Assembly: GCA_963820625.1 (NCBI GenBank)
Contig: CAWGAV010000020.1
Span: forward strand, 138 to 64,137
DNA from: an uncultured delta proteobacterium
GTDB lineage: Bacteria; Desulfobacterota; BSN033; UBA1163
DNA: 64,000 nt
Reading direction: 5' to 3'
Under the pieces are notes generated by a model that was not told the DNA's origin, searched no databases, and worked only from the letters and a program-made list of their open reading frames with translations. A program made the translations under genes and the position numbers. How positions within the stretch are numbered: position 1 is the first letter of the stretch; every line of letters starts with the position of its first letter. Shown one piece after another: positions 2,309-58,597 of this stretch.

Positions 2309-3007
2309 ATGCATTACCCCATAAAACACTCATTCGATGAAATTTTGCTGCAACTGACACAGGTCGGTCTACCTGCTCAACCTATCTCTCTGAGAAAAGT
2401 TCTTTTTTGGGGAGAGAGGGCAGGAGAAATTTCGTCCTATGTGGCGGGATGGTTGGCAGCCAAAGGGATAGAGGTCATCGTATTGGATGGGGCCAATCGT
2501 TTCGATCCTTACATGGTCTCATCTTTCGCAAGAAAGGCATTGATCCCTCCAGAAAGACTTCTCAAAAGAATTCGAATCGCAAGGGCCTTCACTTGCTATC
2601 AGATGGCCATCATGGTCGGGGAGAAATTACACTCCTTGCTCAGTCAGGAGGGAGCGACCCGCCAATCGGAAAACCGATGGGTCATCCTTTTAGGACCGGT
2701 CACCCCGTTTATGGACGAGGATGTATCGGAAAGAGAGGTTCGACCTCTCTTCGAAAGATCTCTGAAAAAGATAGAAGAGATGGTTTTAGGGGGAATTCCT
2801 TTTCTTCTATTCCAACCTTCTGGCTCCTCTGACTCAAAGCGAGCCTATCTTACGAGAAGGCTCTTCCAGTTTTCTAATCTGATCTGGAGGATATCTCTGG
2901 AGGACCAGGAACCACGAGTTGTTCTGGAGAAGGGATTAACAAAATCGCAGATTGCAGATAGCAGATTGAAAAATCCCTGCCTTGACGATTCTGTCATTCC
3001 CGTGTAA
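2309..3007 (+). CDS. ImuA-like / degenerate RecA-fold protein (putative)
   Basis: 232 aa. Alternating strand/helix pattern with a degenerate Walker-A position (WGERAGEISSY) and a Walker-B-like IEVIVLDGANRFDP. Lies between lexA and polB. The last residues (DDSVIPV) come from a REP element. Confidence 0.45.
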   Translation: MHYPIKHSFDEILLQLTQVGLPAQPISLRKVLFWGERAGEISSYVAGWLAAKGIEVIVLDGANRFDPYMVSSFARKALIPPERLLKRIRIARAFTCYQMAIMVGEKLHSLLSQEGATRQSENRWVILLGPVTPFMDEDVSEREVRPLFERSLKKIEEMVLGGIPFLLFQPSGSSDSKRAYLTRRLFQFSNLIWRISLEDQEPRVVLEKGLTKSQIADSRLKNPCLDDSVIPV

Positions 3008-3068
3008 ATGGGAATCTAGATATGAATATTATAAAAAAATATGGATTCCTGCTTCTGCAGGAATGACA
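2994..3068 (+). repeat. REP-like double-hairpin element, copy 2
   Basis: tcattcccgtgtaaatgggaat...ggattcctgcttctgcaggaatgaca. Same family as 2176-2247 and overlaps the stop codon of the preceding ORF. Confidence 0.75.
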
Positions 3069-3178
3069 GAAGAGGCAGGATAAAGAGATCTCGTCGGTAG
3101 TAAATCCGACATTACATTTCTGTCGGAAGATAGAAAAATTTTGCAATTTTCAATTTAAAATTTGCATTTTGCATTGGA

Positions 3179-3445
3179 GTGCCAATGGGAAGAACGGTTC
3201 TTCCTTTTAGCAGGGTTCTGGAACAGGAAGTCCAGGAGTGGAGGAAGTTTCGGAGAGGCCTGAGAAAAGAAGATCAGCAGTTTCTCGACCGGCTCTTTGA
3301 AGAGGCAAGACTTCATGTGCAAGCTGGAGTCTATGCTTCAAGACCCTGGCCTTTTGAGACGATTCTGATCTCTATTCTTCTCGAGCACGAGAAGACTTTG
3401 GTCGATTTGAGATCGAAACTGAGGATATTAGAGGAGAAGGAGTAG
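3179..3445 (+). CDS. hypothetical 88-aa protein in the lexA-polB cassette
   Basis: ORF only, same strand and between cassette genes. No motif recognised. Confidence 0.45.
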   Translation: MPMGRTVLPFSRVLEQEVQEWRKFRRGLRKEDQQFLDRLFEEARLHVQAGVYASRPWPFETILISILLEHEKTLVDLRSKLRILEEKE

Positions 3446-3468
3446 CCGTACCAATTGATACCCTTCTT

Positions 3469-3543
3469 GTCATTCTGAGCGATAGCGAAGAATCTATTGA
3501 CCTCCTGTGAGATTCTTCGTCGCCTATTGCTCCTCAGAATGAC
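3469..3543. repeat. REP-like inverted repeat (gtcattctgagcgatagcgaagaatc ... gattcttcg...cctcagaatgac)
   Basis: Arms read directly. A half copy lies at about 59222-59255. It inflates the 5' end of tracked ORF 3497..5836. Confidence 0.7.
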
Positions 3544-3580
3544 AGTGGGGAGAATCGCTCAATTTAACGGGGAAAAACCC

Positions 3581-5836
3581 ATGGAGATCAGAGGACAGCT
3601 CTTTGATCTTTATCCTCTGGAGTCTTCGATGATCCTGTGGATCAAGGAAGAGGATGGAAGGCTTCGCCGATTCGAAGATCTTTTCAGGCCTCGATTCTAT
3701 ACGCGGGGGAAAAAAAGTGATCTTTTCGATCTCTTCCACTCTCTTCAGAAAGGGCGGCGGGCAGCAGGATACCAGTGGACCAGAAAGAAGGAGCTCTGGA
3801 GTGGCGATGAAGTGGAAGTGATGGAGATCGAGGTTGTAGATTCGGAGCATTATGCCCAACTTCCCCGAATTCTCCCCCAATGGGAGGAGAAGATTACCTT
3901 TTACAATTGCGACATTCCTTTGCCACAGACCTATCTTTATGAAAGAAAAATCTTTCCGACAGGCCGATGCATTGTCGAGGTTGAAGGAAATCGGATCTTT
4001 GAAATTCATCCTGATCCATCCGAGTCTGTGTGGATGAACGATGGAGACATTCCCGACCTCCGGGTCATGGAACTTCACACCAATGGTAACTCTGTGCTTC
4101 TTGGTAGACAGACCCTGAACCGCTCTGGTTCAGGGCTCATACTGAAGTGCGAAGGGTATGGGGTGGAGATGGAGACGATCGATGTTGGAGAAATTGAGAA
4201 GTTTCTCAAACGTTTCGATCCTGATGTGATCCTGAGCGATGATGGGGATGCCTCTCTTTTACCCCTTCTCTTTTCGGCAGAGAAGAGATGGAAGACTTCC
4301 ATCTCCTGGGATCGGGAGCCTTACCCTGTGAAAAGGCAGGTTCATCCGAAAGGTTTTTCTTACTTCTCCTATGGCAGGACCTACTATCGGGCCCCTGCCC
4401 ATATTTTTCTGGGAAGATGGCACATCGATCGTAGAAACTCCTTCATCTATGGAGAATCGGGAATGGAAGGAGTGATCGAACTGGCACGATTGGCTAAAAT
4501 TCCAGTTCAACGGATGGCTCGGACTTCACCAGGAACAGCGATCACCTCGATGCAACTCGACCGGGCCTTTCAGGATGATATCCTCATCCCCTGGAGAAAG
4601 GGGGAACCGGAACGATTCAAGACGGCGTGGGATCTGCTCATTGCGGACAAGGGAGGTCTTGTCTTCCAACCTAAGCTGGGGATCTTTGAAGATGTAGCAG
4701 AGATTGATTTTGCCTCGATGTATCCTACCATGATGGCGATTCACAATATCTCTCCGGAGACCGTACTTTGTGGATGTTGTGAGAACCATAGGGTTCCGGA
4801 GGCTGGTTATACAATCTGTGAAAGACGAAAGGGAATCGTACCTAGAACCCTTAGTCCTATCTTAACGAGAAGAACTTGGCTCAAGAAAATGGCCAAGGAA
4901 GGAGATCCAGATAGAAGAGAAATCTGCAACCGGAAACAGACGGCACTCAAATGGATGCTCGTTACATCCTTTGGATATTTAGGTTATCGGAATGCTCGCT
5001 TTGGAAGAATCGAAGCCCATGAAGCGGTCACTGCCTTTGGGAGGGAAAGCCTCCTTCAAGCCAAGGAGATCTGTGAGGCGGAAGGGTTCGAACTTCTCCA
5101 TGCCATTACCGATTCCCTCTGGATTCGCAAGAAAGGATTCAGAGAGGAAGAGGTTCTTAATCTCTGCGAGAAGATCAGCAAGGCCACAGGGATCACGATG
5201 AGTCTGGAGGGAATTTATCGATGGATGGCTTTTCTCCCCTCAAAAGGGAACCCAGAAAGCCCGGTGGCCAACCGTTATTTCGGACTCTTCCAAAACGGAA
5301 AGATTAAAGCGAGGGGGTTATCCTTTCGGCGAGGCGATATGCCTCCTTTGATTCAAGAGGCTCAGGTTCGAATGATAGGGGTTTTGACAGGGACAAAGAA
5401 TATGGAGGATTTCCGGTCGAAGATCCCTGAGATTTTAGACCTTCTCCTCGAATATAGCCTGAAGTTGAAGGACGGCCAGACGAGGCAAGAGGATTTGGCT
5501 ATCGGGAAGAGAATTTCTCGGGAGCCTAATGCCTATAAAGTGGATAGCCTCACTGCTCTCGCCGCCCAACAGTTGGAAGATGTTGGAATCGAGATCCATC
5601 CCGGAGAGAAGGTTCGGTATGTGATCAAGGATGCCGAATCCAGGGATAAGGCGGAGCGAGTCAGGCCTTTCCCTTTAGTGGGGCCGGATGACACCTACGA
5701 TGTCAAAAAATATCTGGAGATGCTCGTGAAAGCAACCGAGGAGATATTGATCCATGTTGGCTATGATGCAAAACGCCTGTACCCCTTACTCTCCCTCTCC
5801 CCTGAGCGGGAGAGAGGAAGGGTGAGGGAAACTTGA
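3581..5836 (+). CDS. polB: family-B DNA polymerase, archaeal-PolB-like, exonuclease motifs degenerate
   Basis: Motif A is DFASMYPTMMAIHNISPET, motif B is KWMLVTSFGYLGYRNARFG, motif C is LLHAITDSL, and the KxY-like motif is ANRYFGL. Exo I position reads VMELHT (no DxE). Exo II reads DDGDASLL (no NxxxFD). Start moved to ATG 3581 (MEIRGQLFDL) because 3497-3580 is a REP element. The C-terminal tail (LSPERERGRVRET) is REP-derived. Confidence 0.85.
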   Translation: MEIRGQLFDLYPLESSMILWIKEEDGRLRRFEDLFRPRFYTRGKKSDLFDLFHSLQKGRRAAGYQWTRKKELWSGDEVEVMEIEVVDSEHYAQLPRILPQWEEKITFYNCDIPLPQTYLYERKIFPTGRCIVEVEGNRIFEIHPDPSESVWMNDGDIPDLRVMELHTNGNSVLLGRQTLNRSGSGLILKCEGYGVEMETIDVGEIEKFLKRFDPDVILSDDGDASLLPLLFSAEKRWKTSISWDREPYPVKRQVHPKGFSYFSYGRTYYRAPAHIFLGRWHIDRRNSFIYGESGMEGVIELARLAKIPVQRMARTSPGTAITSMQLDRAFQDDILIPWRKGEPERFKTAWDLLIADKGGLVFQPKLGIFEDVAEIDFASMYPTMMAIHNISPETVLCGCCENHRVPEAGYTICERRKGIVPRTLSPILTRRTWLKKMAKEGDPDRREICNRKQTALKWMLVTSFGYLGYRNARFGRIEAHEAVTAFGRESLLQAKEICEAEGFELLHAITDSLWIRKKGFREEEVLNLCEKISKATGITMSLEGIYRWMAFLPSKGNPESPVANRYFGLFQNGKIKARGLSFRRGDMPPLIQEAQVRMIGVLTGTKNMEDFRSKIPEILDLLLEYSLKLKDGQTRQEDLAIGKRISREPNAYKVDSLTALAAQQLEDVGIEIHPGEKVRYVIKDAESRDKAERVRPFPLVGPDDTYDVKKYLEMLVKATEEILIHVGYDAKRLYPLLSLSPERERGRVRET

Positions 5837-6024: not shown

Positions 6025-6330
6025 ATGTTTGAGGTTTCGGAAAAGGCGACTGAGATGATCAAGGAGTCCTTCATAGATCAGGAGAAAATCCCATCCATCC
6101 GTGTGGCATTCAACGAGGGTGGCTGAATGGGGCCATCATTGGGCCTGGTTCAGGATGAACCGAGTGAAGATGACGAAGTTTTTACACAAGAAGGTGTCAC
6201 TTATCTTGTTAACAAAGACTTGTCTGAGCAGGTAAAGCCCATTAAGGTGGATTTTATCGATACGCCCAGAGGAGGCGGATTTTTCATTTTCTCCAATCTA
6301 GGGAAAGAATCCGGATCCTGTTGTTGCTAA
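6025..6330 (+). CDS. HesB/IscA-like protein with in-frame UGA (probable selenoprotein)
   Basis: ATG 6025 is preceded by GGAGG. Translation: MFEVSEKATEMIKESF..IRVAFNEGG-[TGA 6124-6126]-MGPSLGLVQDEP...GSCCC. The UGA sits where HesB/IscA proteins have the GGC(S)G cysteine. Tracked ORF 6127..6330 is in the same frame. Hairpin at 6146-6162. Confidence 0.7.
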
Positions 6331-18421: not shown

Positions 18422-19978
18422 GTGTCATCCCCTCATATTATCATCAACCTATACTTGGTAGATGAATTTATGAAACTAACATCAACACATCTGCAAGATA
18501 ACACGCTTTTTCCTCTCAAAGGGAAATTAATTGAACCTATCGGTATCAACCTTGAGAATCAAACACATATTACTACTAAACAGCAGACTGTTTTGGAAAG
18601 GATAAATGCCCTTGATAGCAGATTAACGCAGCACTTTCACAACAAAATCAAGCTCCAACCAGCATTAACACGTCAACTTGTTAGCTTTCAAGCCAACAAA
18701 CATAGGCCAACCTACCGCTGGTATAAATACAAAGAGGCTTTTTCCGCATCTCTCATTGAAATTTTGTTGTCCAAATATGGAATTAGATCTGGCAAGGTAC
18801 TTGATCCATTTGCAGGGAGTGGCACGGCCTTGTTTGCAGCAAGCGATACCGGGATTGATGCTGATGGGATTGAACTGCTTCCTGTCGGGCAACAGATTAT
18901 TCTTGCAAGAAAATGTTTGGAGAAAGAATTTACTACAGATGATTTCGCCACGCTTAAACGTTGGGGGACAGATCGTCCCTGGTCTCAATCAAAAATAAAA
19001 ATACCTCTTTCTAAGTTGCGGATCACTGACGGAGCCTATCCAAAGCAAACGATTGAATTAATCGAACAGTATATGGGGGCCTGGCAGAGCGAAAACAACC
19101 GAGTTCAGTCTGTATTACGATTTGCCTTGTTATGTGTACTGGAGTCAATTAGTTTTACCCGCAAGGATGGGCAGTATCTCCGATGGGATTATCGTTCAGG
19201 TCGCCGGCAGGGGACACAGCCTTTCAACAAAGGAGGGATAATCAATTTCGATAAGGCAATTTGTGCCAAAATTAGTGAGATTTGTCATGATTTAGATGTA
19301 AGTAAGGAACCCAGTCAGCTTTTCTCCTCAAAAGTTCTACAAGGTGACATTCGTCTTTTTTGTGGTTCCTGCCTCGACATAATGCCTACACTGCCTGAGA
19401 ACTTATACGACGCAGTGATGACATCCCCTCCTTATTGTAACCGCTATGACTATACAAGGACATATGCATTAGAGTTAGCCTTACTTGGGATAGGAGAAGA
19501 TGAACTTAGCAGGCTTAGACAAGAAATGTTAAGCTGTACAGTCGAAAATAGGGCCAAGGACTTATTGAAGATCAATCCGGAATGGACAAGCGCGATAGCG
19601 GCTGCAGACAGTCAAGAGTTGTTACAGGTTATCTTGCGTTATCTTGAGGACGAAAAAGCTGAAGGTCGTTTAAACAATAACGGCATTCCCAGAATGATAC
19701 GTGGCTATTTCTATGAAATGGCCTGCATTATTTGTGAGTGTGCTCGTGTTATGAAAGCAAATACCCCCTTATTTATGGTAAATGATAACGTGCGCTATGC
19801 AGGCGCAAGTATTTCAGTTGATATGATCCTTTCTAATATCGCAGAAAAATTGGGATTCAATGTAGAAAACATCCTTGTTTTGCCAAACGGTAAAGGCAAT
19901 AGCAGCCAGCAAATGGGGAGACATGGCCGTGATCCATTAAGAAAGTGTGTTTACGTATGGAGAAAAAATAGTGGCTAA
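18422..19978 (+). CDS. type II DNA methyltransferase (amino-methyltransferase, N6-A or N4-C)
   Basis: AdoMet motif I is [15 protein letters not shown]. Catalytic motif IV is [12 protein letters not shown] about 200 aa downstream (motif I, then target-recognition region, then motif IV). Likely start at ATG 18470 (MKLTSTHL). Confidence 0.8.
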
Positions 19979-20927
19979 AAACAAACCCCACCGCAAGCAC
20001 CTGTCCAGCGGCGACGACCTCATAACTACTTATGAAGAAATTAGAGCCGGTTTTGTCGCGTTAGCCTTAGAAAAAAACCGTAGAGCTACTCCTTTTGTCG
20101 AGCAAGCCCGCTCTTTAAAAGCAGCTGCATCTCAAGTCAAAACTCCTGCGGATTTACTTAATATTGAGAGCATACAACCTGCCCTCTTGACAGCTTCAGG
20201 CGTGTCAGACAAAGCAATGAATTATCTTTTGCCTCAAGACAGGATAGAAGCGATTCAAGGATTGATAGCAAAATACCTTGAACCTGCTGGGCCTGCGTTT
20301 GTTGAAGAATTAGTTTTTAGATTTTTGTTAACGAGGGGAGACACACTTGGGGGTTCAATGCGAAATATAGGCGGGGTCATGGGAGAGCGTAAGCTGACTC
20401 GTGCAACTCTTGCGAATCTTGCACTTGCGGGAATTCCCTATCAATGGCTTCACTCTGACAGTAAAGAGTGGATAATTGGGAAAAATGATGATGCTGATAT
20501 AGAATTATACCTTACTGCGCTTAGTTGGTCATACAAAGGTCGGGGTCGTACCATGATTTATAACCGCAGAGTACCTTTTATAGGCAAAAACATTGATTTA
20601 TGCCTTCTTAATTGTACTCCTCAAAATCTGAATAACGCCTTTACTACACCATCTCGCTACATTGCTCTTGGAGAACTCAAAGGTGGTATTGATCCGGCTG
20701 GAGCAGATGAACACTGGAAAACTGCAAGAACATCCTTAGCCCGTATACGAAAAGCGTTCTCTGATAACAAGTTATCACCCTATATATTTTTTGTTGGTGC
20801 GGCAATTGAAAACAGCATGGCAGAAGAAATCTGGCACCAGTTAGAAGACAGGACATTAAGCAATGCTGCCAATTTGACCAATGCAGATCAAGTTGCATCT
20901 TTGTGTGGATGGTTATGCAGTTTATAA
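19947..20927 (+). CDS. probable type II restriction endonuclease (partner of the methyltransferase)
   Basis: Overlaps the MTase stop and is on the same strand. No housekeeping similarity. Contains a [17 protein letters not shown] segment reminiscent of PD-(D/E)XK-type REase cores. Assignment rests mainly on context. Confidence 0.55.
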
Positions 20928-45282: not shown

Positions 45283-45659
45283 GGTAGTTTCTCCTGTAGA
45301 AAACGGATGATCTTCTCGTCCCTTGGCAGCAACTCCTTGGGAACTTCAACCCCAACTAAACTCAAAGCCCTTGCCAGACAGTGGATATAGAGGGGAGCGG
45401 CATCTTTCTCATTCATAATCATTCCTTTTCTGACGGCCAGAGGCCAGGCCCGCTCGAAAAGTTCCAGGGCTTGCTTACGGGCACGTCGGAGTCTCTGGTC
45501 GAAAAGGGAGATATTCAGACGCCTCAATAATTCCTGCTGGGCCTCCTCCATAAATGAAAAGACCCGCCGCATACTCTGAACCGAGGGGTCATGGCCCCAT
45601 TCATCCTCAAAAGACATCTTCTTTTTGTTCTGATCGTTTTTATTCATTGACGATGTCAA
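45279..45659 (-). CDS. hypothetical protein
   Basis: 126-aa ORF downstream of the cyclophilin gene on the same strand. Confidence 0.45.
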   Translation of the reverse strand: MTSSMNKNDQNKKKMSFEDEWGHDPSVQSMRRVFSFMEEAQQELLRRLNISLFDQRLRRARKQALELFERAWPLAVRKGMIMNEKDAAPLYIHCLARALSLVGVEVPKELLPRDEKIIRFLQEKLP

Positions 45660-46282
45660 CCGTCATTTCAATTCTATCATTTGGATTATCGTTACCATCT
45701 CTGGGTTGCGATACAATTTTATCCACTGCCTCCATTCCCTTCACCACCTCACCAAACACTGTATATTTTCCATCAAGAAAAGGAGCATCCGCCACACAGA
45801 TAAAAAACTGGGAGCCAGCGCTGTCTGGATGGGCAGACCTTGCCATGGAGAGCGTCCCTCGCCGATGGGGTTTATTGTTAAATTCGGCTTTGATTTGATA
45901 GCCTGGACCTCCCATCCCATGGCTTGATCGGTCAGGATTTTTTGAGTTGGGATCCCCTCCTTGAATGACAAACTTGGGCGACTACTCTGTGAAAAGTCGT
46001 TCCATTGTAAAAACCTTTTTTTGCAAGTTCGATGAAGTTATTCACATGATTGGGTGCCACTTCAGGGAAGAACTTTAAAGTAATATCTCCTAATGTTGTG
46101 TGGATGATCGCTTGTTGTTCGGACATCTTCTTGCCCTCCTCAGACGTGAATATTTTGTATCGCACTTCTTGTGAAAAAGATTGAGACGTGAATAGAGTTA
46201 GGAAAAATACAAAAAATATCAGGATCAGCCAGATTCTTTTTATTTCATCGCCTCTCTGTTTTCTTACTGATTTAAATTCCAA
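45640..46282 (-). pseudogene. cyclophilin-type peptidyl-prolyl isomerase (secreted) interrupted by one frameshift (about 45975)
   Basis: N-terminal part ...LGDITLKFFPEVAPNHVNNFIELAKKGFYNGTTFHRVV. The shifted frame gives PKFVIQGGDPNSKNPDRSSHGMGGPGYQIKAEFN...SMARSAHPDSAGSQFFI. Length mod 3 = 1. Confidence 0.85.
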
Positions 46283-46309
46283 TCGTAAGGTTGGTATCGG
46301 ACTCGAATT

Positions 46310-47085
46310 TTATCTCTGTTCTGTTGTGAGAAAGGTCTTCTTCTCTCCTTCGTCAAGGAAGTTAAGAAGGAGTTCAATCAAAGCGCTGTCACTTCCCCCA
46401 AAATCAGTTTTATACCATTTAAAGATTTTTGAAATGAAGACAATTCCTTCCTGTGGAAGAATCTTTACTTGAGGGCTGTTGACGAAACTCTCGGCAGCGA
46501 GTTGGAGCTGAAAATCAATCTGATCGGCTTCGTAAAAGCCAATAGGCGGGCACGATCGGGCACCGCAGACCAGTGAGAAATGGATTCGTGAATCAAGAGG
46601 AGGATGGCAAACTCCATTCGTGGGTCTTTTTTTCGGAATGGTTTCAGAAGTCCATAAGGGTGTCTACGATTCCCCCGAAGGATACCGTGTTCCATATCAT
46701 TGAGGGAAAAACGAAAGCCCCCAATCTCATACATCACACGATCGAAAAATCCAGAAACCTCCTTGACAGACTTATCGAGACCCAGTTCGATCACACCGTG
46801 AATCACAGCCGTATTATAAATATTAATCCAGAATGCGAGCCTTCGATTCCGTTCCTGAAGGGAACGTAGATCGAACGACTGCAGCCCTTTTGTAAGATCT
46901 TTGTATCGTTCGAACTCCTCAGAGCCACGGATAGCCCTATAATGGACCACGCCTTTCTCGGCGTCGATGAACCGTGCTTTCAGATCAGCCATCGCAAGAG
47001 TTAAGGCGATATCGATGGACTGGTCCAATGAGATTTTAGATGGATCCCCTGCGTTGAGGAGAATCGGTGAGGGATAAATGCTCAC
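46310..47085 (-). pseudogene. DUF547-family protein interrupted by one frameshift (about 46600)
   Basis: Tracked ORF 46465..47085 has LAFWINIYNTAVIHGVIELG. A second frame continues ...DSRIHFSLVCGARSCPPIGFY...FISKIFKWYKTDFGG to TAA 46310. GTG start 47085 overlaps the rhodanese stop (GTGA). Confidence 0.75.
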
Positions 47086-47486
47086 TTCTTTTCTGTTGGG
47101 TAATTGGCCTTAGACCATTCCCACCAGCCACCTTTGAGGGCATAAACCTTCGTGTATCCCATTCCCATCAGCTTTTGTGCCACACTGGCACTGGTCCCTT
47201 CTCGGGGTCAGGCACAGTAGAAAACGAGTGTCTTATCCTTGGGATATTTGTTTGCCCAGGAGTCAAAAGCTTCTGGGTCTTCTCGAACAGCACCCTTAAT
47301 TTTCAAGTCACTATCTGTCCAGTCCCTGCCGTAACGGACATCTATGATAATTAAATCAGGGTTGCCCAGCATTGCCTTGAGTTCATCCTTTGTCATCCTG
47401 GGGGCATCCGCAGATTTGGCAAATGTTGTTAAAACCACAACTGTAAAAAAAATAAATAAGGCGCCTATGAATAATCTCTTTTTCAT
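47082..47486 (-). CDS. secreted single-domain rhodanese with in-frame UGA in the active-site loop (candidate selenoprotein)
   Basis: Tracked ORF 47208..47486 ends ...KDKTLVFYCA-[TGA 47208-47210]. The same frame continues PREGTSASVAQKLMGMGYTKVYALKGGWWEWSKANYPTEKK to TGA 47082. Hairpin GUGCCA-GUG-UGGCAC starts 16 nt 3' of the UGA (47177-47191). Confidence 0.55.
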
Positions 47487-47638
47487 CCTATACCTCCTTG
47501 GGTGAATGACAAAATTCCTTCAAACAAAAAGTTAAATATAACTTAAACTTAACAGACGAGTACCTCAAAATCAATAGGAAGGCGCATAAAAATCGCTTGT
47601 TTAGGTATAGAAATTTTGGTATCTATATAACATTCGAA

Positions 47639-47726: not shown

Positions 47727-48854
47727 ATGATTACAGTCCCAGCCCATAAGGTAAGGCAATTTGGAGTGGAGTTCTATCAAACCTCTTTTACATCTGGCGA
47801 TATCCAGAAGTTGGTTAAATTTGAAGTATTAAATTATCCAGCAGTTGGGGAAGAGGAGAAACGACGAAAAGCTGGAAAAACCTCAGCCATCAACTGGGAG
47901 TTGCTGGAAAAACGGATCGGGAGGAGTGAGGCTGCTTTTCAGAGGCCGATGATTCGGAAGAAGATTCGTGAATTGGTCCAATATTATTTGGATTGTCAGG
48001 AGGCCCGAAATCTGCCTGCCATCCCAGGAGCCGTGATCATGATTACAGAGAAACGGCTCAAATTTTCACCCGCCGGGAAGAATCCCAACTTGGGGATGCT
48101 TCAGATCCCAGAGGAGACTGGAATCCTGAGGTGTCTGGATGGTCAGCACCGGCTGTTAGCCCTCAGCGCTCAAACCGAAAAAGATGTGGAGATTGATGTC
48201 CCGGCCGTTCTCTTCGACAGCCTGGACCCTCGCCAGACCGTAGAACTTTTTGTTACGATCAACGCCAAGCATACACGACTCAATCCCTCCCATCTGATTT
48301 CATTGGCGGGTCGAAGGCTTTATGCCGACCGGTATCAGGCATTGGCTCATGACATCATTCGTGAGCTCAATGAGGAGGAGAGTTCTCCCTTGAGGGGAGA
48401 GATTAAAATATTGGGTGTCGGGAAGGGCAGGGTTTCCCAGGCCTCCCTGGCCGATGAGATGGTGGACCTTTTTAGTAACATCGAGAAACTTGGAGGGAAG
48501 GAGCGATTCAAGGGATTTGAGCAGAACGGAAAACGATTTTTTCTGAATTACTTTAAGGCAATTCTGGCACTCTTCCCAAAGGCTTGGGCAGGTCGAAAAT
48601 ATAGCATTAAAACCGGAGCAGCCCTTCGAGCCTTAATTCGTGTGAGCCCTGATATCATGTCACGATCGAAGGAGTTGAAAAATGATTCCTTCGACTATTT
48701 TGGCATTCGAGAGGCGATCAAACCCTGGGGCGAGAGGATTGGAGAAGGTCGGTTCGAGACGGAAGGAGAGTGGCGGAGGAAATTGGCAGGAGGGACCCGG
48801 GGGACAGTAGAACTTCTCACTCGGGAACTTCGAGATGCCTTAAAGGTTTCTTAA
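47727..48854 (+). CDS. DGQHR-domain (DndB-like, ParB/Srx-fold) protein
   Basis: Literal DGQHR motif (ILRCLDGQHRLLAL), followed by LFVTINAKHTRLNPSHL. 375 aa. Confidence 0.8.
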   Translation: MITVPAHKVRQFGVEFYQTSFTSGDIQKLVKFEVLNYPAVGEEEKRRKAGKTSAINWELLEKRIGRSEAAFQRPMIRKKIRELVQYYLDCQEARNLPAIPGAVIMITEKRLKFSPAGKNPNLGMLQIPEETGILRCLDGQHRLLALSAQTEKDVEIDVPAVLFDSLDPRQTVELFVTINAKHTRLNPSHLISLAGRRLYADRYQALAHDIIRELNEEESSPLRGEIKILGVGKGRVSQASLADEMVDLFSNIEKLGGKERFKGFEQNGKRFFLNYFKAILALFPKAWAGRKYSIKTGAALRALIRVSPDIMSRSKELKNDSFDYFGIREAIKPWGERIGEGRFETEGEWRRKLAGGTRGTVELLTRELRDALKVS

Positions 48855-57478: not shown

Positions 57479-58049
57479 AGGAAGTTACAAATTTATCGAA
57501 GATCTCAAAAGCCGATAGATCATAAGACGCATCCATAGGTCTCCATTGGGTAATATAGAAACCTACGACCCGATCACCCCGTTTGCCGAAGACCACTTTG
57601 GCTCTGACCTTTTCCTTTTTAATTGGATCTTTCCCTTCGACCGTTACCGCTAGTCCTTCTCCACCCACCACCTGGACTTTTTTCTTCTCCAGGATTTGAA
57701 ACTGGAGGATAGCATTAAAAAGGAATCGTTTAAAGAATTCCTTTTCCCTTTTTTCAAACCCTGGGGTACAACCAAAAGGCTCTTCGTCATAAGCAAAGGA
57801 GGTCACAGAAGGATAGCCTCCAGAGTCTGATTTCATAAATCCAAAATTGATATCATTTTCACCCACTTCCACCCGAAGCAATTTCCAGTCCGGAGGTGGG
57901 GGCATAAACTCAAATTCGTCTTCCCAGATGACCGTTCCCTGAGGAGACAATCGATAAGGAACTTTCTTAGGGGGTTCCGTGGTGGCACATCCCGCAAGCC
58001 AAGCCATCACCAACATCGAACATAGAATCGTCAATGCTTTTCTTTTCAT
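57441..58049 (-). CDS. lipoprotein of unknown function
   Basis: Lipobox MAWLAGC. The start overlaps the peroxiredoxin stop (ATGA). Confidence 0.5.
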   Translation of the reverse strand: MKRKALTILCSMLVMAWLAGCATTEPPKKVPYRLSPQGTVIWEDEFEFMPPPPDWKLLRVEVGENDINFGFMKSDSGGYPSVTSFAYDEEPFGCTPGFEKREKEFFKRFLFNAILQFQILEKKKVQVVGGEGLAVTVEGKDPIKKEKVRAKVVFGKRGDRVVGFYITQWRPMDASYDLSAFEIFDKFVTSFKFLKKSFYETL

Positions 58050-58597
58050 GGTTTTCCTCCTTCCTGATTCAATTTTTTGAGAAAGAGGAGAATGTCTTTG
58101 AAGTCGGGCGAGCCGTCCCTCACATAACGAATGATCCCCTTCTTGTCAATGATGACCGTCCGTCTTCCAAAGATAGGATTTCCTTCAGGCTGGATGTCGA
58201 AAGAGACACCCAAAAAGGCAGTCACATTTGAGAGGAGAGGAAAAGTTAAATCCAAGCCTTTTGCCCAATATTTTAAGGTTGTCACATCATCCCGACTGAC
58301 GCCCAGGACCCGGGCGTTGAAGCGCTCATAGAGGTAGAGATTCCTCTGATGGCCCTCCATCTCGCCCGTTCAGACGGGGGTGAAGGCCGCTGGGAAGAAG
58401 GTAATAATTAGATGATGTTTTCCATAATACTCATCTGCATAGTTGATCAACCGGTCGTGGGTAGAGGGCAGGGTAAAATTGAGTGTCTCTCGACCGATTA
58501 ACTCTACTTTTTTTGCGGCTTCGGCATTGGAAAAGAGAAAAAGAAATAGAAAAAATAGTGAGAATAAAATCCATCGATCAAAGGCCTTTTTTCTCAT
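58046..58597 (-). CDS. secreted peroxiredoxin (AhpC/TSA family) with UGA at the peroxidatic Cys position (probable selenoprotein)
   Basis: ORFs 58370..58597 and 58046..58360 are in one frame (552 nt). Translation: ...HHLIITFFPAAFTPV-[TGA 58370-58372]-TGEMEGHQRNLYLYERFNARVLGVSRDD. The canonical motif is FTPVCTxE. Bulged hairpin at 58327-58351. Confidence 0.75.

Follow-up and report, generated by a model that had tools for sequence, protein, structure and literature searches.

An in-frame UGA predicted to encode selenocysteine in an exported rhodanese gene of an uncultured delta proteobacterium

Results

A rhodanese gene continues in frame beyond an internal UGA codon

The rhodanese gene lies on the minus strand of the window (the whole 64-kb stretch of DNA that was analyzed), where direct reading identifies an ATG at 47486..47484 that opens a frame of 92 codons. 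The product of this first open reading frame (47486..47208, minus strand) ends in KDKTLVFYCA and is followed by an in-frame TGA at 47210..47208. Past this codon, the same frame contains 41 further stop-free codons (PREGTSASVAQKLMGMGYTKVYALKGGWWEWSKANYPTEKK) and runs up to a TGA at 47084..47082, which together with the GTG start codon of the next ORF (47085..47083) forms a GTGA overlap. An earlier note on this DNA had described the stop after TLVFYCA, the 41-codon continuation and the GTGA overlap, and all of these were recovered from the sequence, on the minus strand.

The complete read-through coding sequence (47082..47486, minus strand) comprises 134 codons, including the putative selenocysteine (Sec) codon, and the terminal TGA. 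On the basis of its translation and of matches to the Pfam Rhodanese and NCBIfam NF041203 profiles, it is predicted to encode an exported single-domain rhodanese selenoprotein. A Shine-Dalgarno-like AAGGAGG (47493..47499, minus strand) is located 6 nt 5′ of the ATG and presumably functions as such. The true stop codon (47082..47084, minus strand) overlaps the GTG start of a downstream gene that was identified as DUF547 by Pfam.

The read-through product belongs to the rhodanese_LYCAU family

The 92-aa product matches only positions 1–69 of the 102-position Pfam Rhodanese profile (PF00581; E = 1.3e-6), whereas the read-through product matches positions 1–101 (E = 5.8e-15). As the profile is completed only by reading through the UGA, the continuation is more than would be expected by chance. 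The read-through product thus contains the full PF00581 domain, with the catalytic cysteine opening the loop that follows the central β-strand.

The read-through protein also matches NCBIfam NF041203.1 "rhodanese_LYCAU," an equivalog model (cut-off, 115 bits) for a "rhodanese-related (seleno)protein," scoring 195.9 bits with a cysteine at the Sec position and 189.0 bits with an X at this position. The match spans profile positions 4–126 of 126, and the F-Y-C-A-TGA at 47222..47208 (minus strand) corresponds to the (L/F)-Y-C-A-U motif of this family. A rhodanese CxU selenoprotein was first predicted in 2005 (Zhang and Gladyshev, Bioinformatics 21:2580), and selenoproteome reviews list the rhodanese "CxU" form, placing the family under the "predicted" selenoproteins. 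In view of the full-length NF041203 match and of the CxU form in these reviews, the gene is of an already known kind: it is a member of the catalogued rhodanese_LYCAU (CxU) selenoprotein family and is not new to specialists. The earlier note had regarded the Cys-x-Sec arrangement as unusual. This does not hold, as C-x-U is the defining and name-giving motif of the curated NF041203 family.

Besides the (L/F)YCAU motif, in which Sec follows the cysteine at a distance of two residues, the window gene and the NF041203 family share an equal size and hosts among the Deltaproteobacteria/Thermodesulfobacteriota. The window gene differs from the LYCAU motif in having Phe rather than Leu before the tyrosine, as do 25 of 81 homologous gene copies (see below), and in nothing else of substance. 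A UxU variant has been described from the delta-symbionts of Olavius algarvensis (Zhang and Gladyshev, 2007, PMC1976440). It shares the family and the active-site loop with the window gene, and UxU is also found in four relatives of the latter (loci L015, L024, L055, and L084). Unlike the UxU form, the window gene has only one Sec, its first position being occupied by a cysteine codon (TGT). In two deltaproteobacterial Olavius symbionts, rhodanese-related sulfurtransferase was the third most abundant selenoprotein family (PMC1976440), and a further selenoprotein family of rhodanese-related sulfurtransferases, assigned to COG2897, was reported in the Sargasso Sea survey.

The UGA codon is conserved among homologous genes

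By protein search, 1738 relatives were obtained, and the best 120 of these were inspected. Approximately 95 of these 120 are calls of 90–92 aa that end at the same residue as the 92-aa product, with 76–100% identity there, and in full-length database calls the UGA column is occupied by W, C, S, or Q. A scan of genomes, limited to one genome per species, identified 368 relatives, and the best 80 loci, comprising 81 gene copies, were analyzed. The family is widespread among these species-representative genomes; the best 80 loci derive mostly from Thermodesulfobacteriota or "delta proteobacterium" metagenome-assembled genomes, with some from NC10/Methylomirabilota, Nitrospirota, and others, and include the cultured strains Desulfacinum hydrothermale DSM 13146 and D. 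infernum DSM 9756. Their identity to the window protein ranges from 49 to 82%, which rules out that the homologous loci are copies of one contaminating sequence.

The codon at the UGA column is TGA in 78 of the 81 copies, TCA in two (L049 and L076), and TTA in one (L070). The Cys91 column, two codons before it, is TGC or TGT in 77 copies and TGA in three, the remaining copy (L076) being read out of register. Every copy read in register therefore has Cys or Sec at this column, and the Sec column is occasionally occupied by Cys, Ser, Leu, or Gln. Two natural cysteine homologues, P0094 and P0096, carry the sequence C-A-C-P, and the codon is TGT in P0094 (locus L081). The cysteine and serine homologues are continuous proteins of 130–148 aa.

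According to the earlier note, Arg or Trp at this column in the homologues would point to a simple nonsense mutation. Arg was found in none of them; apart from TGA, a few homologues carry Cys, Ser, or Leu. Tryptophan does occur in database entries, but these entries extend beyond the normal EKK end of the protein, past the expected terminal stop. One of them, P0002 (locus L084), was checked at the DNA level. Translated with table 11, it reads VFY*A*PQEG near the active site and TEKK*FYGR* at the end, so that all of these W residues, also the one at the terminal position, correspond to stop codons. From this we infer that Trp at the UGA column reflects a TGA translated with the wrong genetic code, that is, an artifact of gene calling.

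The region downstream of the UGA evolves as coding sequence

The 41 codons following the UGA (47085..47207, minus strand) are predicted to complete the active-site loop and to encode a helix and the strand/helix of the rhodanese fold that contains KVYALKGGWxEW. Over the 38 codons after the TGA, the mean pairwise divergence among 79 TGA-containing copies is 0.23 at the first codon position, 0.22 at the second, and 0.52 at the third. Amino acid identity is 64.5% in these 38 codons vs. 57.4% in the 38 codons before the TGA, and an additional stop codon downstream of the TGA is present in one of the 79 copies only (L025). The divergence pattern, the higher identity, and the intact frame indicate that the post-UGA codons form a translated region under purifying selection. 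The possibility that the downstream part is never translated, raised in the earlier note, is thus countered by its conservation as coding sequence across 79 copies. Together, the comparisons strongly support the interpretation that the UGA is a sense codon and that translation continues through the 41 codons that follow.

A conserved SECIS-like hairpin follows the UGA

The hairpin GUGCCA-GUG-UGGCAC that had been noticed downstream of the UGA is present at 47191..47177 (minus strand). Its stem starts 16 nt past the UGA, and its loop contains an invariant G, 22 nt past the UGA. With its GUGCC(A)/(U)GGCAC stem and NGU-type apical loop, this candidate bacterial SECIS-like element was characterized by base pairing and covariation among the homologues.

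Folding of the single sequence showed that the region after the UGA is no more stable than shuffled sequences (z = 0.08 and -0.59), and folding after the other two in-frame UGAs of the window (described below) was roughly likewise unexceptional (z = -1.66 and -1.44). Given these values after all three UGAs, thermodynamics alone is uninformative, and the significance of the hairpin derives entirely from the comparison of homologues. A search of the whole window at the Rfam gathering thresholds, and of 46900..47600 at E ≤ 10, yielded no SECIS or other relevant family and only two chance matches.

For the analysis of pairing, we used an ungapped alignment of the TGA and the following 54 nt from 79 copies (78 distinct sequences). 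The five core pairs GUGCC/GGCAC are standard pairs in at least 77 of the 78 distinct sequences, and overall pairing is 92.3%. Pair 21–33, which joins the third position of a serine codon to the third position of an alanine codon, is U-A in 59 sequences, C-G in 10, and U-G in nine, with no mismatch. Compensatory synonymous changes occur in the stem, with double changes in four of the six pairs, and none of 500 shuffles attained any of the observed measures. When the 3′ partner is shifted by 1–3 columns, pairing falls from 92% to 26–57%.

The hairpin is also visible in codon usage. The serine codon at +6 is AGY in 76 of 79 copies, against a background of 45% in the same genes, and the alanine codon at +7 is GCC in 77 of 79 (background 46%). 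The alanine codon at +10 is GCA or GCG in 77 of 79 copies and never GCC or GCT, which account for 63% in the background. Although the loop codon varies between Ser, Arg, Gly, and Trp, G is invariant at its second position, and where it specifies Ser it is always AGU.

The hairpin is missing in the cysteine form L081 and in the serine forms L049 and L076. It is still present in L070 (TTA) and L083 (CAA), which are apparently recent non-TGA variants. These data strongly support the view that the hairpin is under selection at the RNA level, as judged from the alignment, and that it occurs with the TGA and not in the diverged cysteine and serine forms.

A stem-loop shortly past the UGA with a conserved G in its apical loop is the arrangement expected of a SECIS, and it is present in the window gene; the expected distance from UGA to hairpin is that reportedly given in the description of bSECISearch. 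The loop of the E. coli fdhF SECIS carries G23-U24. Like SECIS elements of the fdhF type, the hairpin of the window gene is located just 3′ of the UGA inside the coding sequence and appears to be selected at the RNA level. Its conserved loop G (usually GU) falls at nt 26–27 counted from the U of the UGA, compared to G23-U24 in fdhF, which places the loop one codon farther from the UGA. In contrast to the fdhF type, the stem is short (5–6 bp) and no bulged U is evident.

Selenocysteine is the preferred reading of the UGA

We consider it highly probable (approximately 90%) that the UGA at 47210..47208 is the Sec codon of a rhodanese_LYCAU (CxU) selenoprotein gene, and predict that it is read as Sec93. 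The conserved TGA, the coding signature downstream, the covariation in the hairpin, and the cysteine homologues all agree with the Sec reading that the earlier note had proposed. Among these, cysteine homologues at the Sec position and coding conservation past the UGA are general hallmarks of selenoprotein genes. By analogy with bacterial Sec decoding, SelB-GTP-Sec-tRNA(Sec) would bind the hairpin on the translating mRNA and deliver Sec to the UGA. The host clade Thermodesulfobacteriota corresponds to the Deltaproteobacteria that are described as Sec-rich in the literature (PMC1976440). A tRNA scan found no tRNA in the 64-kb window, and hence no tRNA-Sec there, and Pfam searches identified no selA, selB, or selD among the 20 largest ORFs of the window.

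Two other genes of the window also contain a single in-frame TGA, in each case at a known Sec position. One encodes an IscA/HesB protein (6025..6330) with a TGA at 6124..6126, and scores 105.7 bits against NF038090 "IscA_HesB_Se" (cut-off 85). The other encodes an AhpC/TSA protein (58597..58046) with a TGA at 58372..58370 in the motif FTPV-U-TGE. The rhodanese gene had been counted as the third UGA-containing gene of the window, a count that stands, and the two further genes, which are of selenoprotein type as far as their sequences indicate, lend indirect support to the Sec reading.

An alternative is that a standard amino acid is inserted at the UGA, either under a reassigned code (tables 4 and 25; Trp or Gly) or through suppression by a near-cognate tRNA (Trp or Cys). 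The several database entries with Trp at the UGA column would fit this, as would the fact that Sec in the rhodanese CxU family is only "predicted" in reviews. The DNA of P0002/L084, however, identifies the Trp entries as artifacts of gene calling, and TGA is also the true stop of the window gene and of 33 of 82 homologues (the remaining genuine terminal stops being TAA in 27 and TAG in 22), which speaks against a reassigned code. Plain suppression leaves unexplained a conserved hairpin that sits at SECIS distance, is tied to TGA, and is missing in the cysteine and serine forms. The alternation of the column with Cys, a classic Sec signature, and the Sec-rich host clade also argue against a standard amino acid, and we consider such decoding very unlikely. 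Slightly less probable still is genuine termination at the UGA, with the downstream part expressed separately or conserved for regulation. A 33-aa ORF with a GTG start at 47183 does exist in the same frame (47183..47082), but its start lies within the hairpin, and both the loop and the first part of the helix would be missing from its product. The upstream product would end at profile position 69 of 102, without the active-site loop and the C-terminal elements, whereas the natural cysteine and serine homologues are continuous proteins.

The least probable explanation, to which we give hardly any weight, is that the TGA represents a nonsense mutation, a pseudogene, or a sequencing error, and that only the 92-aa fragment or nothing is made. 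The contig does carry errors or pseudogenes, as the adjacent cyclophilin and DUF547 genes are frameshifted in it and intact in relatives. These nearby errors are indels and not substitutions, however, and an error could not account for a TGA in 78 genomes. Neither a nonsense mutation nor a pseudogene fits with TGA being found at the same codon in 78 of 81 copies (about 80 species), or with a downstream frame that is uninterrupted in 78 of 79 copies and better conserved than the upstream part.

The read-through protein is predicted to be exported and to have an enlarged active-site loop

Comparison with the homologues predicts an N-terminal signal peptide of approximately residues 1–25 (47412..47486, minus strand), consisting of MKKR, a hydrophobic core, and AKS|ADAPRM, with a putative cleavage site as marked. 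A strongly hydrophobic N-terminal stretch preceded by basic residues is present in 78 of 80 homologous copies. In many copies, A-x-A-like sites precede the conserved (A/E)D(A/V)PRMTKEEL, and 12 copies, several of the closest relatives among them, have a lipobox-like motif instead. Based on these N-terminal features, the mature protein is most likely periplasmic or lipid-anchored. The product would comprise approximately 110 residues after cleavage of the signal peptide and would be located in the periplasm, and in close relatives it may be lipid-anchored.

An AlphaFold2 model was obtained for the natural Cys-Cys homologue P0094 (mean pLDDT 83.9). In this model, the strand TIVFY is followed by the 8-residue loop C-A-C-P-N-E-A-T and then by a helix, and residues 5–28, the equivalent of the signal peptide, form a lone helix outside the domain. 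The best structural matches of the P0094 model are single-domain rhodaneses such as 3nhv, 2hhg, and YgaP (Foldseek probability 1.0, TM approximately 0.55–0.6). The codon for Cys91 of the window protein (TGT, 47214..47216, minus strand) lies at the end of the region encoding the central β-strand. In phmmer alignments, this residue coincides with the catalytic cysteine of rhodaneses of known structure; examples are the FYC of 6mxv and Cys412 of EanB, which carries the persulfide.

The window protein is predicted to share its fold with canonical single-domain rhodaneses (E. coli GlpE, PspE, and YgaP; 6mxv, 2hhg, 3nhv, and 5hbo), and in both the catalytic cysteine is positioned at the end of the central strand. 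PspE is periplasmic, like the predicted location of the window protein. In contrast to the canonical enzymes, the active-site loop of the window protein (C-A-U-P-x-E-G-T) has 8 residues rather than 6, and a second chalcogen nucleophile (Sec) is predicted at +2. Solved structures are 18–29% identical in sequence, and none of them has the 8-residue loop.

An extended loop is also known from the Cdc25/Acr2-type phosphatases and arsenate reductases of the rhodanese fold, in which the seven-residue loop HCX5R ends in an arginine. The loop of the window protein (C-A-U-P-R-E-G-T-S) has no Arg at C+6 or U+6, and the homologues have T-S there. As no Arg occupies the required loop position, we rejected a phosphatase of the Cdc25/Acr2 type.

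Possible roles of Cys91 and Sec93

Within the enlarged loop, Cys91 may be the canonical persulfide-carrying site, and Sec93, two residues on in the same loop, its partner nucleophile. Sec93 could serve as the acceptor of sulfane sulfur or, alternatively, join Cys91 in a Cys-S-Se-Sec selenenylsulfide. We place about even odds on this division of roles. Alignment from the N-terminal side favors Cys91 as the canonical nucleophile position; counting back from the helix, Sec93 plus five residues would likewise give a loop of canonical length. With such a pair, the protein might function in the cell envelope of sulfur-metabolizing Thermodesulfobacteriota as a relay for sulfur transfer or redox reactions.

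It is conceivable, though rather unlikely, that the Cys-x-Sec in the 8-residue loop of an exported rhodanese supports a chemistry that is not known from any rhodanese. One option would be a reversible Cys-S-Se-Sec selenenylsulfide switch, and another a periplasmic seleno-persulfide relay of sulfur-cycling Thermodesulfobacteriota that acts on polysulfide, elemental sulfur, or selenium. The exported rhodanese CxU family would be a reasonable target for the study of periplasmic sulfur and selenium chemistry.

Genomic context and annotation of the family

Synteny that includes the DUF547 gene is restricted to approximately 10–13 close relatives. As no neighboring gene family is common to all 80 loci, the genomic context offers no clue to function.

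The significance of the locus lies mainly in annotation, as three gene models are corrected: that of the rhodanese and those of the two other selenoprotein-type genes. Taken together, the three genes would mark the source organism as a user of Sec. The rhodanese gene is routinely mis-annotated, since most database entries of the family are truncated calls of 90–92 aa. Some other entries are mistranslated, with Trp at TGA codons.

Variant and atypical copies of the rhodanese gene

In some relatives of the rhodanese gene the Cys codon of the motif is itself replaced by TGA, resulting in the sequence Y-U-x-U. This form was found in three genomes (loci L015, L024, and L055) and in a metagenome contig (L084), in agreement with the UxU form of the Olavius symbionts published in 2007 (PMC1976440). 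Other copies depart from the common arrangement in different ways. The copy of the cultured strain Desulfacinum hydrothermale DSM 13146 (L025) retains the conserved TGA and carries an in-frame TAA 18 codons past it (approximately position 3322–3324 of the locus, …LIGMGF*KVYALKGGW), whereas in D. infernum, its sister species, this codon is CAA (Gln); the D. hydrothermale copy may be a recent pseudogene or reflect a sequence error. One metagenome-assembled genome (L053) encodes two copies in tandem (approximately 3001–3411 and 3450–3860), both with the TGA, of which the second is further diverged (IYCD-U-PDNGTSA).

Public gene calls of the family either end at the Sec codon or read the TGA as Trp (database entries P0002–P0004, P0011, P0032, P0071, P0073, P0085, and P0118, together with approximately 95 further entries). 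Among the best 120 of 1738 matches, these approximately 95 entries stop at the Sec codon with a length of 90–92 aa, and the calls with Trp at times overrun the real stop codon, yielding spurious C-terminal extensions.

Other genes with an in-frame TGA

The IscA/HesB-like gene on the forward strand (positions 6025–6330) contains an in-frame TGA at 6124–6126 (…RVAFNEGG-U-MGPSLG…). Its read-through product scores 105.7 bits against the NCBIfam model NF038090 (IscA_HesB_Se, cut-off 85) and also matches Pfam Fe-S_biosyn. This is probably a second selenoprotein gene, belonging to a known family.

In an AhpC/TSA (peroxiredoxin-like) gene on the reverse strand (58597–58046), the in-frame TGA (58372–58370) occupies the peroxidatic position within FFPAAFTPV-U-TGEMEG. 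Translated through the TGA, the product has a signal-peptide-like N-terminus, spans the complete Pfam AhpC-TSA profile (1–124 of 124) and reached no family cut-off in the NCBIfam search; the gene is similar to known selenoproteins described as Prx-like thiol:disulfide oxidoreductases.

Frameshifted genes downstream of the rhodanese gene

The DUF547 gene (46264–47085, reverse strand), which overlaps the rhodanese stop codon, contains at least two frameshifts. Its Pfam match does not extend past position 84 of the 125-position profile. A separate ORF (46264–46377) encodes the conserved C-terminus, …YQPYDWNLNQ; the homologue at locus L014 is unbroken. The cyclophilin-type peptidyl-prolyl isomerase gene (45640–46282, reverse strand) is likewise divided over two ORFs in different frames, which match positions 4–49 and 74–154 of the Pfam profile, respectively, and its L013 homologue is unbroken. 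This split is a frameshift, reflecting either a pseudogene or an indel error in the assembly.

Additional genes of possible further interest are those for a family-B DNA polymerase of 779 aa (3497–5836, forward strand), a DNA methylase adjoining a BsoBI-type restriction endonuclease with a Pfam E-value of 5.8e-149 (18422–20927, forward strand), and a DndB-like DGQHR protein (47727–48854, forward strand), the last divergent from the rhodanese gene.
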